Below the pieces are notes generated by a model. The model did not search any database, was not told where the DNA came from, and saw only the letters and a program-made list of their open reading frames with translations. Shown here one piece after another: positions 32,008 to 55,915 of a stretch of 64,000 nt of DNA. The position numbers were made by a program, and so were the translations under genes. The first letter of the stretch is position 1. Each line of letters begins with the position of its first letter. The DNA is from Bdellovibrionales bacterium (GTDB taxonomy: Bacteria; Bdellovibrionota; Bdellovibrionia; Bdellovibrionales; UBA1609): positions 17,641 to 81,640 of the forward strand of contig JAAOIH010000001.1 in NCBI GenBank assembly GCA_015163875.1. Reading direction: 5' to 3'.

Positions 32008-33978
32008 TTATTTTGTTTCTTTTTTGTATATTTGTATTTTATTTTTTTTAATTTGATACAAGCTTAGAGGGCGAGTAAATTCTCTGTTTTCAGAAATATA
32101 CAAAGTTTCAAATGCACCTAAAAAATTTGCAGTTTTACTCATTGCTGTTTGTAGCTGTAATCTAGTGCTAATATTGTTTTTAGTTAGTGTCTCTTTTACT
32201 AAATGTGCCGCCTCGTAAGCGTAGCTAGCTAAAAGATGTGGCCTTTGATAAAATATTTTTTTAAATTCTTTATAAAAAAAAGAATTTTTTTTATCTTTGT
32301 AGGTTAAACTAGAATCTGCAAATAATATTGGTGCTGTATATTTTGGAAGAAATTTTATTAATTTAGGTTTGTTCCACAAATTTGTTCCAAGCAAAAGAAT
32401 GTCATCTATTTCGTGATAAATTAACATATTACTAATTTGAATTAAACTTCTAAAAGTATCTGGAATAAATAATGCCTGAAATTGCAACACTGGTTTTAAT
32501 AAATTATCCACAGAAACACTGTGGGCACGCCTTTTATTTTTATTTTTACTAAGCCATTGTTTTAAAGATTTTTTGTATTCTTCTTCTCTGTCTTTTAAAA
32601 AATATAAACCAGAAAGGCTTTTTACTTCTTTGTTAAAATCTTTTTCTTTGGAGGGGTAAGACTGAGCACCCACAATAGATTGTTTATTTTCTAAGACTAT
32701 ATCCCAAAATAAATTTGAATGTTTTGTTCCATAAGCGTCGTTTGGATATAAAGTAGCCCACTTGTTTGCACTAAAGTTTTCTTGTATTGCATTAAACAAA
32801 ATTTCTAACTGCATTTTACTTGTAATAGAATTTCTAAATACATACGGACGATTTATAGTAATGTCTGGACTTTGAGAAAGCGAAATATAAGGAACCTCAA
32901 ATTGAGAGGCGGCTTTTGCAACAATTTTAGATGTTTTACTTAGTGGATTTCCAATAATTGCAATAACCTGATCTTGTGTTAACAGCTTGTGCACGGCAAG
33001 TTCTGTATGCTGATTGCTGCCGTGACTGTCTACTATAATTAACTCTAGCCACGAGTTAGATTTTTTATCCCAAATACCTAGGCCAAGTGAAACCGCATTT
33101 ACAATAGCCCTTCCAATTTTTTTATACTTTCCAGTTAGAGGAACAATAAGTCCAATTTTATTTTTATTTACACTTTTATATTTTTTTATTTTTTGCAAAA
33201 AAGAAAGGGCCGATTGTTTTTCATTTTGATCTTGAGATGTTTTAAATAACTGTAAAAACGTTTTTTTTGCTTCAGAAAAATTTTTTTCTTTTAGCATTAG
33301 TTTTCCGTATCTCATAAGGGCAAATATTTGTAAATCTGGATATTTTTTCTCTCTAACAAGTGTTGCAATTTCTTTTTCGCTTAAAAGATTTTTGACAATC
33401 CAGCTAATTTGTTTTTTTATTGCAAATTGCAAAGACTTGTTATCTGCCAAACTTTGGCCTGCAGCAAGTGCATTAAAATATTGTTGCAATTGGTAATAGT
33501 ATTTAAATAATTTTGTATATAAATAATTTTGCAATGGAGCATCTAGCTGTTTTATTTTTAATTGTAAAATAAAAGAAACTGCAAATTGATACTGTCGCCG
33601 CTCTTCAGAAAATTTTATTAATCTTAAAATTGCCCTTTTTATAAGAGGGCTATTGTATTTAGAAAGCGCAATTTGTTCTAGTAGTTGAATTTGTAAACCA
33701 AGGTCTCCAGATTTAAGGGCCAGCTTGCTTCTTAAAAAAAGAGATTGAAAAAAGCTATGAGTATTTGGATAAGTTTGCTCTATTATTTTTAATTTTTTAA
33801 TTAATTTAAAATCATTAATTTGTTTTTTATTGTATTGATATAAAAGAGTTTTTAACTGAGCCTTGGCAGACGGGTGCAGCCGAGGCTTGGGCTTTGGAAC
33901 AGGCACATGCGCACACGAGCTAAGATATAAATATGTAAATAAACTAAAAAAAAAAATTAAATAATTATTTTTAATCAT
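32008..33978 (-). CDS. LpoA-like lipoprotein (helical TPR-like N-domain plus LivJ-type periplasmic-binding C-domain)
   Basis: Lipobox LYLSSC. Helical repeat N-half. C-half resembles type I periplasmic-binding fold (IGLIVPLTGKYKKIGRAIVNAVSLGL). Start ATG 33978 overlaps the grpE stop by 8 nt; ORF extends to 34014. Confidence 0.55.
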   Translation of the reverse strand: MIKNNYLIFFFSLFTYLYLSSCAHVPVPKPKPRLHPSAKAQLKTLLYQYNKKQINDFKLIKKLKIIEQTYPNTHSFFQSLFLRSKLALKSGDLGLQIQLLEQIALSKYNSPLIKRAILRLIKFSEERRQYQFAVSFILQLKIKQLDAPLQNYLYTKLFKYYYQLQQYFNALAAGQSLADNKSLQFAIKKQISWIVKNLLSEKEIATLVREKKYPDLQIFALMRYGKLMLKEKNFSEAKKTFLQLFKTSQDQNEKQSALSFLQKIKKYKSVNKNKIGLIVPLTGKYKKIGRAIVNAVSLGLGIWDKKSNSWLELIIVDSHGSNQHTELAVHKLLTQDQVIAIIGNPLSKTSKIVAKAASQFEVPYISLSQSPDITINRPYVFRNSITSKMQLEILFNAIQENFSANKWATLYPNDAYGTKHSNLFWDIVLENKQSIVGAQSYPSKEKDFNKEVKSLSGLYFLKDREEEYKKSLKQWLSKNKNKRRAHSVSVDNLLKPVLQFQALFIPDTFRSLIQISNMLIYHEIDDILLLGTNLWNKPKLIKFLPKYTAPILFADSSLTYKDKKNSFFYKEFKKIFYQRPHLLASYAYEAAHLVKETLTKNNISTRLQLQTAMSKTANFLGAFETLYISENREFTRPLSLYQIKKNKIQIYKKETK

Positions 33979-34690
33979 TTGCTGGTTTGTCGTTGTTTGT
34001 GCTTTTGTCATCATTTGTTAATTCTGTATCTTTTGATTTAGCCGCAGAAACAATAACCTGACTTGGGCGAATAACTTTATCATGCAATTTATATCCAACC
34101 TTGCACTCTTTTATAATATAGCCAACTTTAACAGTTTCGCTATTTTCTGAACTAATAGCTTCGTGCAAGTGGGGATCAAATACTTTTTTATTTGTTTCTA
34201 TTTTTTTTAATCCATGGCTCTCTAGGCTTTTTGATAATTCTTCAGAAGTCATTTTAAAGCCAGTGTAAATATTTTCGTAATTGTCTTTTGTTATTTTTGT
34301 TTGCAGTGCCATTTCAAAAAGATCAGAGATTTTTAAAATATCTAGCATTATATTTTCTGATCCAAAACTTATAAGTCGTAATTGTTCTTTTGCCATATTT
34401 TTTTTATAATTTTCAAACTCTGCTTTTAAATATGCATATTGAGTTTTAAATTCATCGGACTCTTTTTTTGCTAATTCTAATGGAGAAAGTTTTGGAGATG
34501 TGTCTGTTTTTTTGTCATCTTTTGTGTCGTCTTTTTTATTTTCTTCAGAAAAATCTAAAGTAAGACCTTCTTCGCCCTCTTCTTGACCAGTGACTGCATT
34601 TTCTTCAGCGCTGTTTTCAGAGCTTTCATCTTTGTTGTTTTCTGTGCTGCCTTCTGTATTATTTTCTGTATTTTTTATATACTCATTCAT
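33971..34690 (-). CDS. grpE: nucleotide exchange factor GrpE
   Basis: Long helix plus C-terminal beta domain (FDPHLHEAIS...GYKLHDKVIRPSQVIVS). About 70-aa acidic N-terminal extension. Confidence 0.9.
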   Translation of the reverse strand: MNEYIKNTENNTEGSTENNKDESSENSAEENAVTGQEEGEEGLTLDFSEENKKDDTKDDKKTDTSPKLSPLELAKKESDEFKTQYAYLKAEFENYKKNMAKEQLRLISFGSENIMLDILKISDLFEMALQTKITKDNYENIYTGFKMTSEELSKSLESHGLKKIETNKKVFDPHLHEAISSENSETVKVGYIIKECKVGYKLHDKVIRPSQVIVSAAKSKDTELTNDDKSTNNDKPAND

Positions 34691-37523: not shown

Positions 37524-37967
37524 TTATTTTTGTAATTTTTTACAAATTAAATAATCTGTAGATATTTTTCCAGGGCCCCAAAGTATTATAATAAATAATG
37601 CCAATCCCCAAAGCTTGTGATCGTAAAAACCACCACTCCACAAGGCGGGATAAGAAATTACCGCAACAGCATTTAAAATAAATAATTTTAAAGCAGAAAG
37701 TCTGGATAATATTCCTAAAACCAAAACAACTGGTAAAACTATTTCGCCAGCAGTTGCAAGATAAGCTGCAATATGAGGGCTGATTAGCGGGACTTTGTAT
37801 TCTTCTTCAAATAAATACAAAGTAGCGTCCCAACCAGATATTTTATTTAAGCCTGCTTTAAAAAAAATCCAACCAACATAAATCCTAATTGATAATAAAA
37901 AAATTGGCTGCAGATAATCAGATATTTTATTAAAAATGTTATTGTAATAAATTAAAAACTTTTTCAT
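37524..37967 (-). CDS. DoxX-family membrane protein (fourth gene of the RiPP operon)
   Basis: DoxX pattern (LLSIRIYVGWIFFKAGLNKI...GEIVLPVVLVLGILSRLSAL), 4 TMs. 19-nt gap after the DUF2063 gene. Confidence 0.8.
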   Translation of the reverse strand: MKKFLIYYNNIFNKISDYLQPIFLLSIRIYVGWIFFKAGLNKISGWDATLYLFEEEYKVPLISPHIAAYLATAGEIVLPVVLVLGILSRLSALKLFILNAVAVISYPALWSGGFYDHKLWGLALFIIILWGPGKISTDYLICKKLQK

Positions 37968-37986: not shown

Positions 37987-38757
37987 TTATTTTTTTAACA
38001 TAAAACTTTTTTGTTCTAAAAAAAATAACAACTCATTTTGTAAATTAAAACTGTCGTTTATCCTTATTGCTTTTTTTGTAGAGTAAACTATGCCCTTATT
38101 ATTGTTGATTTCTGTTAAAAAAGCAAAACTTTCTTTTTTAATGGCTAGTATTTGTGGAGTAAAATTATTACGAACAATTAAAAAATAAAATTTTTTGTTT
38201 TCTTGTATTTTTAATGTGTCAATTTTTGTTAATTTAATTATTTTATCTAATGGGTATGAAGATAAAATTAAATGACAAGACACATGAAGTCCAAGCCTTG
38301 TTAAAAGCGAATCTTTTTTCTGCTCTTTTGCAAATTCAACAATATTAAGACATTCTGTGTTTTTTGAATAGTAAGATAGTGATAATAAAAATTCTAATTT
38401 AGCCAAATCTGGCAAATAAAGAAGGTTTTTTGTATGTTTATAATGTTTTAAAAAATTACTAAACTCATGCCCATAATTTTGTATGCTTTCTTTTTTGGGA
38501 GGGTAAGCTTTAATGTAATCACGGGCGGTTTGCTCAAAGGTCTTTTTTCCAATAATTTCAAAAGTTTTAGAATAAGAAGTTTTTAAACTATCTATATGAG
38601 TAGAAAAAAAATTATTTTGATAAATTTGAATAAGTTGCAAGCTAGATAAATTATGATGGCTTGTGTATTTACCAAGTAGATTTGTATTTTTGCAAACCTC
38701 GCCAGTATTAAATAAATCTTTAATAAAATATTTTTGTATAGTTTTTATAGTTTTCAT
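37987..38757 (-). CDS. DUF2063-family protein (MbnC/BufC-like partner of the MNIO enzyme)
   Basis: IQIYQNNFFSTHIDSLKTSYSKTFEIIGKKTFEQTARDYIKAYPP...YLPDLAKLEFLLS matches the DUF2063 N-terminal pattern (vYrNn...L...fP...lG...F...yl...P...dlArlE). Confidence 0.8.
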   Translation of the reverse strand: MKTIKTIQKYFIKDLFNTGEVCKNTNLLGKYTSHHNLSSLQLIQIYQNNFFSTHIDSLKTSYSKTFEIIGKKTFEQTARDYIKAYPPKKESIQNYGHEFSNFLKHYKHTKNLLYLPDLAKLEFLLSLSYYSKNTECLNIVEFAKEQKKDSLLTRLGLHVSCHLILSSYPLDKIIKLTKIDTLKIQENKKFYFLIVRNNFTPQILAIKKESFAFLTEINNNKGIVYSTKKAIRINDSFNLQNELLFFLEQKSFMLKK

Positions 38758-38778: not shown

Positions 38779-39528
38779 TCAACAGATACTATTTATAATA
38801 TCTTGGGCTTTGTTTTTTTCATTTAATAATATTTGTATGTCTGGAATATTAGTGTCCCACTCTATTAGTGTATGCGCTTTTTTAAATATTTTAATGCTTT
38901 TAGAAAAAAGATCCCAAACCTCTTTTGATACAGAAGATCCATGATCGTCTATATAAATATTTATATTATTTTCTAAATTAATTTGGTGACCAGCTAAATG
39001 AATTTCTTGAACATCTAGATCTTTAATTTTATTTAAATATTCTAATGGATCAAAATTGTGATTTTTAGAGTTAACAAAAATATTATTTATATCTAACAAA
39101 ACTCCACAACCACTTTGACTACTGGCGCTTGATAAAAACTGCCACTCTGACATATCAGATTCAGAAAAACTTAAATAACTAGACGGGTTTTCTATTAAAA
39201 TTTTTTTATTAAGTAAGCTTTGTGCTTGGTCAATATTGTTAACAAAATTTTTTAAACTAAGCTTTGTGTATGGTATTGGCAAAAGATCATGTGTAAATAT
39301 ATTATCTAACCCGCTCCAGCTCATATGATCAGATATTAAAAAAGGCTGAAGTTTATCAGAAAGTTTTTTTATTTTTTTTGCGTAATCTAAATTAATAGAC
39401 TGACAAGACCCAAGCGAAAAACCAAGGCAGTGAAAGCTAATAGGGTAGTGTTTTCTTAATTTGTAAAGACAATCTATATGTTTTCCACCATCAGAAAAAT
39501 AATTTTCTGGATGAATTTCTAACCACAT
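38779..39528 (-). CDS. DUF692 / MNIO (MbnB-family multinuclear non-heme iron oxidase), main ORF lacking the conserved N-terminus
   Basis: WLEIHPENYF, ISFHCLGFSLGS, ISDHMSWSG, HDLLPIPYT, ILIENPSSYLSF, SEWQFL, GCGVLLDINNIFVNSKNHNFDP, EIHLAGH, IDDHGSSVSKEVW, TLIEWD are the DUF692 TIM-barrel signatures. No SD precedes ATG 39528. Confidence 0.85.
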   Translation of the reverse strand: MWLEIHPENYFSDGGKHIDCLYKLRKHYPISFHCLGFSLGSCQSINLDYAKKIKKLSDKLQPFLISDHMSWSGLDNIFTHDLLPIPYTKLSLKNFVNNIDQAQSLLNKKILIENPSSYLSFSESDMSEWQFLSSASSQSGCGVLLDINNIFVNSKNHNFDPLEYLNKIKDLDVQEIHLAGHQINLENNINIYIDDHGSSVSKEVWDLFSKSIKIFKKAHTLIEWDTNIPDIQILLNEKNKAQDIINSIC

Positions 39529-39549
39529 ATTTTTATATTTTTTTTTTTA

Positions 39550-39600
39550 AAAAATTTCTAAATGTGGAGACCGCAACCCAATGCCACATTCTTGCGGCAT
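39550..39600 (-). pseudogene. 17-codon N-terminal segment of the DUF692/MNIO gene, in frame with the main ORF but cut off by one TAA (39547-39549)
   Basis: Minus strand reads ATG CCG CAA GAA TGT GGC ATT GGG TTG CGG TCT CCA CAT TTA GAA ATT TTT TAA = MPQECGIGLRSPHLEIF-stop, then KKKYKN-MWLEIHPENYF in the same frame. GIGLR is the conserved first strand of DUF692 enzymes. Confidence 0.65.
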
Positions 39601-39644
39601 TGGTTTTTTTATAGAATTTTGCATTCTATTGTTAACAATTATAT

Positions 39645-39908
39645 TTATTTTTTCTTAATAGTGTTAACTAAGCTTCCGCCAACTATTTTTTTGCACAAAC
39701 CTTTTGGAACTACTATAAACGCATCTTTTTGTGCATTTTTTTTAGCACTACCAGCGCAAGAAGTGGTATTAGTTGAGCAATCGTTTTGGCCAGCTTTTAC
39801 TATTCCGTAGCATTTTTCTTTTTTTGCAGCACTTGCATCTTTGGCCTGTGTAGTGATAGCCAAAAGAGCAATTGCGGATATGCTTGCAGCAATTTGTTTT
39901 TTAGTCAT
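39645..39908 (-). CDS. DUF2282-family secreted Cys-containing precursor peptide (bufferin BufA1-like)
   Basis: Sec signal [27 protein letters not shown], then [24 protein letters not shown]...[13 protein letters not shown] with four Cys in DUF2282 spacing. GGAG RBS. Confidence 0.85.
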
Positions 39909-54727: not shown

Positions 54728-55915
54728 TTGATTTTTCGTTTTTTATTTTTTATTAACTTTTTTTTTTCAAATTTTGCAATTGCAAATTCTGATTTTGTAG
54801 AAGGAGTAACTAAGACAGAAATATTTTTTGGACAATCTGCCGCATTAACGGGCCCTGCAAAAAGCTTAGGATTAAATATGCAAAAAGGCATTTTATCAGC
54901 ATTTGTAGAAGTAAATAATAATGGCGGGGTTAATGGCAGAAAACTTAGACTTAAAAGTTTAGACGATCACTACGAACCAGAAACGGCCATTAAAAATATT
55001 TACCACCTAATAGATAAAGAAAAAGTTTTTTCTTTAATTGGGGGAGTTGGTACGCCAACTTCAAAAGCAATCGTCCCCATTATTAAAAAATCAAAAAAAC
55101 TTTATATTGGCCCCCTTACAGGAGCCTCTTTTTTAAGATCATCCCATGTTAACACAGTTGTTAATATAAGAAGCTCTTACTTTCAAGAAATTAAAGAAAT
55201 GGTTTTAAGGTTAAAAAATGATTTAAAAATTAAACGAATTGCAATCTTTTATCAAAACGACTCTTATGGGATTGACGGCTTAAATGCTTTAGAAAAATCT
55301 GTAAAAGAGATTAATAAAGGATTAAAAATTGTTTCTAGAGGGTCTTATCTCAGAAACACAATGGCTATTAAAACCGCACTTTTAAATATTAAAAAAGCTA
55401 AGCCAGATGCTATTATTATTATTGGAACTTATTCACCTGCAGCACATTTTATAAAATGGTCAGAAAAGTTAAAAATTAAATCAAAACTTTTTTTATCTGT
55501 TTCTTTTGTTGGAGTTTCTGAATTGGCAAAAAAACTTAAAAATAGCAAAAGTCTTGTTTTTGTAACTCAGGTAGTTCCGTTTCCCTACAATAAAAAGGGG
55601 CGTCTTTTAAAAAATTATCACAGGGCAATGAAAAAAATTAAAAGCTCTAATAAAATAGGATTTGTTAGTTTAGAGGGCTACATTGTTGGAAGAATTGTAA
55701 TTGAAGCCCTTAAAAGAGCCGGAAAAAAATTAACAAACAAAAGTTTTAAAAAAGTTTTTAAATCAAAAAAAAGTAATTTTAATATCGATGGATTAAGGTT
55801 GTCTTATACTAAAAAAAATAATCAAGGATCTAATAAAGTGTTTCTTACAAGAATTTTTAAAGGAAGGGTTTTGCCTTTAAAAAATTTAAAAGCATTTTAT
55901 AAAAAAATAAAATAA
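54728..55915 (+). CDS. periplasmic substrate-binding protein, LivJ/branched-chain amino acid-binding type
   Basis: Signal peptide. FGQSAALTGPAKSLGLNMQKGILSAFVEVNNNGGVNGRKLRL is the type I periplasmic-binding signature. TTG start. Confidence 0.8.
   Translation: MIFRFLFFINFFFSNFAIANSDFVEGVTKTEIFFGQSAALTGPAKSLGLNMQKGILSAFVEVNNNGGVNGRKLRLKSLDDHYEPETAIKNIYHLIDKEKVFSLIGGVGTPTSKAIVPIIKKSKKLYIGPLTGASFLRSSHVNTVVNIRSSYFQEIKEMVLRLKNDLKIKRIAIFYQNDSYGIDGLNALEKSVKEINKGLKIVSRGSYLRNTMAIKTALLNIKKAKPDAIIIIGTYSPAAHFIKWSEKLKIKSKLFLSVSFVGVSELAKKLKNSKSLVFVTQVVPFPYNKKGRLLKNYHRAMKKIKSSNKIGFVSLEGYIVGRIVIEALKRAGKKLTNKSFKKVFKSKKSNFNIDGLRLSYTKKNNQGSNKVFLTRIFKGRVLPLKNLKAFYKKIK

Follow-up and report, generated by a model that had tools for sequence, protein, structure and literature searches.

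The bufB gene of a bufferin operon in a Bdellovibrionales sponge symbiont is interrupted near its 5' end by an in-frame TAA, which detaches the conserved GIGLR stretch from the 249-aa open reading frame (ORF) that remains. We consider it probable that the TAA is a real and recent nonsense mutation, most likely one that has abolished or severely reduced bufferin maturation and made bufB a young pseudogene.

A bufferin operon in a vent-sponge symbiont

The operon belongs to an uncultured, AT-rich bacterium, labelled Bdellovibrionales, which inhabits a hydrothermal-vent sponge; the sponge metagenome, "TC", comes from a hydrothermal vent of the southern Okinawa Trough, and the Bdellovibrionales symbionts of these sponges have genomes of ~1.2 Mb that were described as reduced (PMC8518922). 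The stretch of DNA analysed here (the window) spans 64 kb, is ~96% coding and has a GC content of 30%. No tRNA genes were found in these 64 kb, and an Rfam scan of the same sequence returned no family at gathering score, with a chance-level match (E = 0.76) near the hairpins described below. A window so compact, low in GC and free of tRNA genes and Rfam families fits the reduced symbiont genome of PMC8518922.

Four consecutive minus-strand genes were assigned by Pfam to DUF2282, MNIO/DUF692, DUF2063 and DoxX, corresponding to bufA-bufB-bufC-bufD. The DUF2063 and DoxX genes adjoin on the same strand, and seven syntenic loci share this gene order. Judged by its genes, the locus has the bufABCD layout of bufferin operons, which have been surveyed in PMC12452194. 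Its features are:

39645–39908, minus strand: bufA, bufferin precursor DUF2282/BufA1, 87 aa, intact (Pfam PF10048, 83.8 bits)
39547–39624, minus strand: orphaned 5' part of bufB, 25 codons (MQNSIKKPMPQECGIGLRSPHLEIF) plus the premature TAA, comprising strand β1 and most of helix α1
39547–39549, minus strand: premature TAA at the junction of T6 (39554–39549) and A11 (39548–39538), from the sequence and ortholog comparison
39526–39528, minus strand: lineage-specific ATG, 18 nt 3' of the stop, candidate restart codon
38779–39528, minus strand: remaining ORF of bufB, MNIO/DUF692, 249 aa (Pfam PF05114, 293.8 bits; NCBIfam MNIO_BufB)
37987–38757, minus strand: bufC, DUF2063 partner, 256 aa, intact (Pfam PF09836; orthologs 249–256 aa)
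37524–37967, minus strand: bufD, DoxX family membrane protein, 147 aa, intact (Pfam PF07681; all orthologs 147 aa)

The size and position of bufA match those in the syntenic orthologs. Its translation contains four cysteines (C33, C44, C51 and C72), the count expected of Buf1-type precursors, and begins with a hydrophobic, signal-like N-terminus that was judged by eye to be a putative signal peptide. In Caulobacter, BufB and BufC are required and sufficient for the modification of BufA1, turning cysteines of the exported BufA1 into copper-binding 5-thiooxazoles, and DoxX is dispensable (PMC11626156). The bufABCD genes of Caulobacter vibrioides (gig-like operon family) represent the four gene families of this locus in identical order and share the four-Cys DUF2282 precursor, and the window maturase passes the BufB equivalog model: the 249-aa ORF scores 315.3 bits against NCBIfam MNIO_BufB (cut-off 310, profile positions 22–262) and 293.8 bits against PF05114 (cut-off 25). 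Unlike its C. vibrioides counterpart, however, the window bufB is cut by a nonsense codon at position 26, and it belongs to an uncultured sponge symbiont of 30% GC.

The TAA separates bufB from its N-terminus

Read on the minus strand from 39600 to 38779, the sequence gives MPQECGIGLRSPHLEIF-stop-KKKYKNMWLEIHPENY... The codons from 39600 are ATG CCG CAA GAA TGT GGC ATT GGG TTG CGG TCT CCA CAT TTA GAA ATT, followed by TTT TAA AAA AAA AAA TAT AAA AAT ATG(39528) TGG TTA GAA ATT CAT, and the region from ATG 39600 across the TAA translates as MPQECGIGLRSPHLEIF-stop-KKKYKNMWLEIH. The initial annotation had placed a stop between the GIGLR stretch and the MNIO ORF, and all of its coordinates (T6, A11, TAA 39549–39547 and ATG 39528) are right. 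Besides this A11 tract, the 64-kb window has just one other homopolymer of 11 bases.

A complete MNIO domain includes the N-terminal G-x-G-L-R strand, which is missing from the 249-aa ORF; the ORF covers only positions 23–262 of the PF05114 profile. When the upstream stretch is added, the match grows to positions 2–262 and the score rises from 293.8 to 311.1 bits, a gain of 17 bits. In addition, the upstream stretch aligns residue by residue with the N-termini of intact orthologs. On the evidence of profile and alignment, the upstream GIGLR stretch is genuine coding sequence and the true N-terminus of bufB, and the 249-aa ORF is what remains of a truncated DUF692/MNIO gene, as had been proposed.

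The gene had, however, been taken to start at ATG 39600 and to give a joined product of about 273 aa, and both points need revision. The orthologs start eight codons upstream of ATG 39600 (M.YSIKKPMP...), where the window has a matching ATG at 39624 (MQNSIKKPMPQECGIGLR), and therefore the ancestral bufB ORF comprises 281 codon positions (39624–38782) followed by a stop, with the premature TAA at position 26. The absence of a Shine–Dalgarno (SD) sequence before the ORF had also been pointed out; indeed none is found at ATG 39528, but its absence is uninformative, because an SD precedes only ~40% of the ORF starts in the window (~23 of 58) and is lacking at the ancestral start as well.

Orthologs encode leucine at the stop position

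A protein database search returned six close orthologs with 73–82% identity and lengths of 274–281 aa, all of them intact, as well as a variant, P0001, that is 99% identical to the window protein, differs from it by two amino acids and is likewise called at 249 aa. P0001 apart, the other homologs among the matches listed have 271–319 aa. No listed homolog starts natively at MWLEIH, so the finding that had been named beforehand as speaking against an interrupted gene, namely a native start at this point in homologs of the clade, is not borne out. At the positions of Asp125 and Ser127 of the window's 249-aa ORF (window 39150–39156), P0001 has Asn and Pro; most close orthologs share these states of P0001, and the window haplotype therefore has two derived non-synonymous changes.

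The ortholog loci are fully syntenic with the window (carboxylase genes, bufA, bufB, bufC, bufD, tatC and tatB). A scan of genome contigs returned only distant gammaproteobacterial loci, with 38–42% identity and lacking the P-I-P motif and the hairpin of the clade. In the alignment, the ortholog proteins read ...KKPMPKECGIGLRSPHLEIF-L-KKKYKN-L-WLEIHPENY, with Leu at the stop of the window and Leu at its Met. The codons at these two positions are:

Window: TAA at the stop position, ATG at the start position
L006: TTA at the stop position, CTG at the position of the window's ATG
L007: TTA at the stop position, CTA at the position of the window's ATG
L008: TTA at the stop position, CTG at the position of the window's ATG
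L013: CTT at the stop position, CTC at the position of the window's ATG
L014: CTT at the stop position, CTA at the position of the window's ATG
L015: CTT at the stop position, ACT (Thr) at the position of the window's ATG

Where the window has its stop, all six orthologs have a Leu codon; three use TTA and three use CTT. The nearest of them, L006, reads GAA ATT TTT TTA AAA AAA AAA TAT AAA AAT CTG TGG, which is exactly the T7A10 arrangement with TTA that had been predicted from the window sequence. The window lineage has two derived single-base changes 21 nt apart, a T-to-A change that creates the stop and a C-to-A change that creates the ATG. The most divergent close ortholog, L015 (1130–1456), has a BufA of 108 aa, as against 87–89 aa, with a GUG-type start region, and a BufB of 274 aa.

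The TAA is present on three haplotypes

A Logan contig from SRR11301536 (L001/L010) likewise reads T6A11, with 6 differences from the window in 5,806 positions, and a Logan contig from SRR11301537 (L011) has the same T6A11 together with a third combination of two nearby SNPs. The TAA is seen, then, on three distinguishable haplotypes, namely that of the window and those of contigs built separately from two libraries. SRR11301536 and SRR11301537 are the 500-bp and 300-bp insert libraries of the one sponge metagenome TC (PMC8518922); all TAA-bearing copies come from one sponge holobiont and one study, the libraries and haplotypes being separate and the source population the same. This indirect evidence makes a fairly strong case that the TAA is real, as far as per-run contigs can show.

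The lost segment forms the first β/α unit of the barrel

An AlphaFold2 model of the intact ortholog P0002 (mean pLDDT 92.6, pTM 0.90) places a strand at residues 14–16 (GIG) and a helix at residues 19–28, both with pLDDT >90, and the next strand at residues 35–37 (LEI of WLEIH). The stop corresponds to residue 26 and the new Met to residue 33, and therefore the 249-aa ORF lacks the whole first β/α unit; in terms of this predicted structure, the missing part is strand β1 and helix α1 of the TIM barrel. Within the lost segment, G14 and L17 are invariant in 119 homologs, and G16, R18 and H21 are at least 90% conserved. Both the predicted strand and this conservation agree with the earlier description of GIGLR as the conserved first strand of the family. 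A sequence match to 3BWW (Histophilus somni DUF692; E = 9e-33) starts at chain residue 2 and spans the GxGxR N-terminus, whereas the window ORF begins after that segment; the matches to MbnB (7DZ9 and 7TCR) and TglH (8HI7) span the downstream part only.

Downstream of the stop, every family-invariant residue is kept, whether the invariant columns are defined in 18 or in 119 homologs. In the numbering of the 273-residue read-through product, these include E28, H30, H57, H92, E137 and D170, as well as N173, H201, D218, H220 and E247. We take the kept His, Asp, Glu and Asn residues of BufB to be iron ligands on the basis of MbnB structures. In the alignment, the 249-aa ORF retains the conserved iron-site His, Asp, Glu and Asn residues of the MNIO family.

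A probable recent nonsense mutation in bufB

A genuine nonsense mutation is the best supported of the four explanations that were offered with the initial annotation. By this reading, an ancestral TTA (Leu, in T7A10) would have become TAA (in T6A11) by a T-to-A substitution at bufB position 26. The stop is common to every examined sequence variant of the population, so that full-length BufB would no longer be possible. Ribosomes initiating at ATG 39624 would release a 25-residue peptide, and in any product of the remaining ORF the TIM barrel would be devoid of strand β1 and helix α1. What is observed is the sequence itself, its ancestry, its occurrence in separate libraries and the structure formed by the lost segment, and from these we infer that function has probably been lost: bufferin maturation would be abolished or severely reduced, and bufB would be a young pseudogene in a genome-reduced symbiont. 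Gene loss is expected in a symbiont genome of ~1.2 Mb, and under the nonsense-mutation reading the result is an ordinary, recently broken symbiont gene.

The rest of the gene and the operon would be undecayed because the event is recent. Between species, synonymous sites would be near saturation (73–81% nucleotide identity at 30% GC), and for this reason a relative-rate count was used rather than dN/dS. With L008 as the outgroup, bufB has 19 window-specific and 11 L006-specific amino-acid changes (ratio 1.7), compared with 104 and 66 (ratio 1.6) for seven neighbouring genes pooled, and bufB shows no excess. This lack of excess change, together with the intact bufA, bufC and bufD, suggests that the event is recent relative to species divergence or that the remainder of the gene is still under selection; continued function would explain the undecayed state of bufB, bufA, bufC and bufD equally well. 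Within the population there are six SNPs in 5.8 kb, four synonymous and two non-synonymous (one in the acid phosphatase gene, the other in the orphaned part of bufB), too few to test.

As in nonsense pseudogenes of genome-reduced, host-associated bacteria, a single disabling substitution affects a gene that is otherwise intact and is common to the local population, here of an organism with a ~1.2-Mb genome. Unlike such pseudogenes, the window bears no other signs of decay (96% coding), and a new in-frame start lies 18 nt past the stop.

Possible restart at the new ATG

The new start raises the possibility, which we regard as real but unlikely, that the gene works, with restart at the new ATG or direct initiation on the A/U-rich leader yielding an active 249-aa BufB. 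Such a BufB would act alone or together with the 25-residue β1-α1 peptide in trans, as a two-piece TIM barrel. The ATG is unique to the window lineage, the six orthologs having CTN (Leu) or ACT (Thr). In the interval from the stop to the conserved WLEIH core, no other codon could become a start by one substitution, and the chance expectation is ~5%: of 486 sites at which the orthologs are invariant, only 25 (5.1%) are altered in the window alone, the ATG site among them. After this ATG, the next start in frame comes 68 codons later. From WLEIH on, the conserved His, Asp and Glu residues are all kept, the 249-aa ORF exceeds the BufB equivalog cut-off, and bufB is without excess amino-acid change. 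The new ATG may hint, as far as a codon comparison can, that a truncated product is made and selected for. However, the ATG coincidence was recognized post hoc (p ~0.05), which keeps restart a candidate without establishing it, and with strains only ~0.1% apart, the missing decay carries little statistical power.

Structure and initiation context weigh further against restart. The lost segment amounts to a whole β/α unit with two invariant and three near-invariant residues, and it is missing in none of the 119 other homologs among the matches listed. ATG 39528 is preceded by a pure A/U leader, 18 nt after the stop, and no SD lies ahead of it. On native E. coli gene pairs, reinitiation across 11–20 nt was reduced but non-zero and gene-specific, falling by 40–80% at +14 nt and being nearly abolished by +38 nt (PMC10666635). 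Restart at ATG 39528 is thus plausible, but probably inefficient. The reinitiation explanation, which had been among those first offered, gains some support from the lineage-specific ATG.

Proteins restarted after nonsense mutations are classically known from lacI and phage T4 rIIB. There, as in termination-reinitiation (PMC10666635), a premature stop is likewise followed by a close in-frame start in an A/U-rich context; unlike in these known restarts, the 18-nt spacing in the window falls in the reduced, gene-specific range, and the putative product is without a barrel unit. That the stop and the new ATG have together created a two-piece BufB, with 25- and 249-residue parts translated from a single mRNA by termination and restart, that reassembles as an active TIM barrel, or else a seven-unit barrel that is active alone, with the operon remaining functional, seems to us distinctly improbable.

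Strain variation, sequencing error and recoding as alternatives

Intact and broken alleles could coexist at a strain- or phase-variable locus, with the assemblies giving the majority allele. The population does contain several variants, P0001 in addition to at least three haplotypes, a long A tract is prone to mutation, and the Logan contigs break within or shortly after bufB, as at variable sites. However, no intact allele of >82% identity was found in a clustered database representing ~15 billion protein sequences, and a JGI metagenome scan admitting either allele gave no match. Moreover, slippage of the A tract cannot remove the TAA, and reversion needs a specific back-substitution. We therefore hold a variable locus to be very improbable. 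Regarding the contig ends themselves, one Logan contig of SRR11301537 ends at 38924 and another begins at 38925, inside bufB, and the SRR11301536 contig ends at 38723, 56 nt past bufB; these ends may reflect strain variation or a break in coverage.

A sequencing or assembly error at the homopolymer boundary would mean that the true sequence is T7A10 and the gene intact. The change falls exactly on the T/A homopolymer junction, and T7A10 is what the nearest ortholog has, yet T6A11 recurs in the deposited assembly and in both separately built library contigs, across the three haplotypes. The total length of the tract (17 bases) is also unchanged, which points to a substitution rather than to the length error typical of homopolymers. 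In the window, 95 of the 101 long homopolymers (A/T tracts of at least 8 bases or C/G tracts of at least 6 bases) sit inside unbroken ORFs and leave them intact. An error of this kind, which had been offered first, is disfavoured and now seems remote. Two further tracts, an A11 at 33946–33956 and a T10 at 54758–54767 (plus strand), lie inside the intact ORFs 32008–34014 and 54728–55915. Compared with the syntenic loci, the other genes are all unbroken and of similar length, the called length differing somewhat for TatB, the small ORF adjoining TatB and the acid phosphatase.

Programmed recoding, by UAA readthrough or by two successive shifts (+1 at UUU-UAA, then -1 on the A run) to give full-length BufB, is scarcely credible: UUU UAA AAA AAA AAA is formally slippery both ways, but TAA is the normal stop, which ends 42 of the 61 ORFs in the window (27 of these in the same TAA-A context), none of the six orthologs has a stop at the site, so that there is no conserved recoding site, no structure is predicted 3' of it as a stimulatory element, the predicted hairpins lying upstream, and two compensating shifts would both need high efficiency, which leaves nothing in favour of the slippery-tract bypass once suggested.

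Reassignment of TAA in the genetic code is ruled out by the same stop-codon usage. Transcriptional slippage on A11 as a means of rescue is ruled out by reasoning, because the UAA persists at every A-run length down to two.

Two conserved RNA hairpins near the start of bufB

A 171-nt segment at the bufA-bufB junction has a folding z-score of -5.0 and is predicted to form two hairpins, both upstream of the stop:

39611–39629, minus strand: RNA hairpin 1, AUAGAAU-GCAAA-AUUCUAU, enclosing the ancestral start AUG 39624–39622 (predicted fold)
39578–39603, minus strand: RNA hairpin 2, CCAAUGCCGCA-AGAA-UGUGGCAUUGG, bufB codons 8–16 (predicted fold and covariation)

The hairpins were compared across seven orthologous loci (the window, L006, L007, L008, L013, L014 and L015). 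For hairpin 1, 93.9% of cells are paired, and changes are only one-sided (G-U). Hairpin 2 has a conserved core of 8 bp, which reaches 11 bp in the window; pairing holds in 98.2% of its cells, compared with 28–49% in slid controls, and two-sided changes occur in three of the eight pairs. Among these, G-C is replaced by A-U in L007 and L013, whereas G-C persists in L006 and L014, the loci of the set most closely related to them. The covariation score was reached by 2 of 500 shuffles. The compensating changes include some at synonymous third positions, and these point to selection on the RNA. In the distant (gammaproteobacterial) bufB loci, the hairpin was not found. We infer that the hairpin may serve translational coupling or set the ratio of precursor to enzyme.

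Position 39604 is polymorphic (A or C), and the C of L001 and L011 replaces Lys by Asn in the orphaned fragment. This C would also form a pair with G 39577 and so lengthen hairpin 2 by one base pair.

Implications for bufferin operons

The deposited 249-aa "DUF692 protein" is best understood as the probable remnant of a nonsense-broken gene and not as a naturally short enzyme, which is mainly an annotation point. What remains of interest beyond it are the lineage-specific restart codon and the covarying hairpins. The latter suggest that in this clade translation of the maturase is controlled at the RNA level, a point of possibly wider interest for the way RiPP operons balance precursor and enzyme. 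If bufB is inactive, the symbiont of this sponge would have lost bufferin-type copper buffering, whereas related lineages from other sequencing runs, one of which belongs to the run series of this sponge, retain the system. The locus would then provide a small natural experiment on the need for bufferins in a metal-rich vent habitat.
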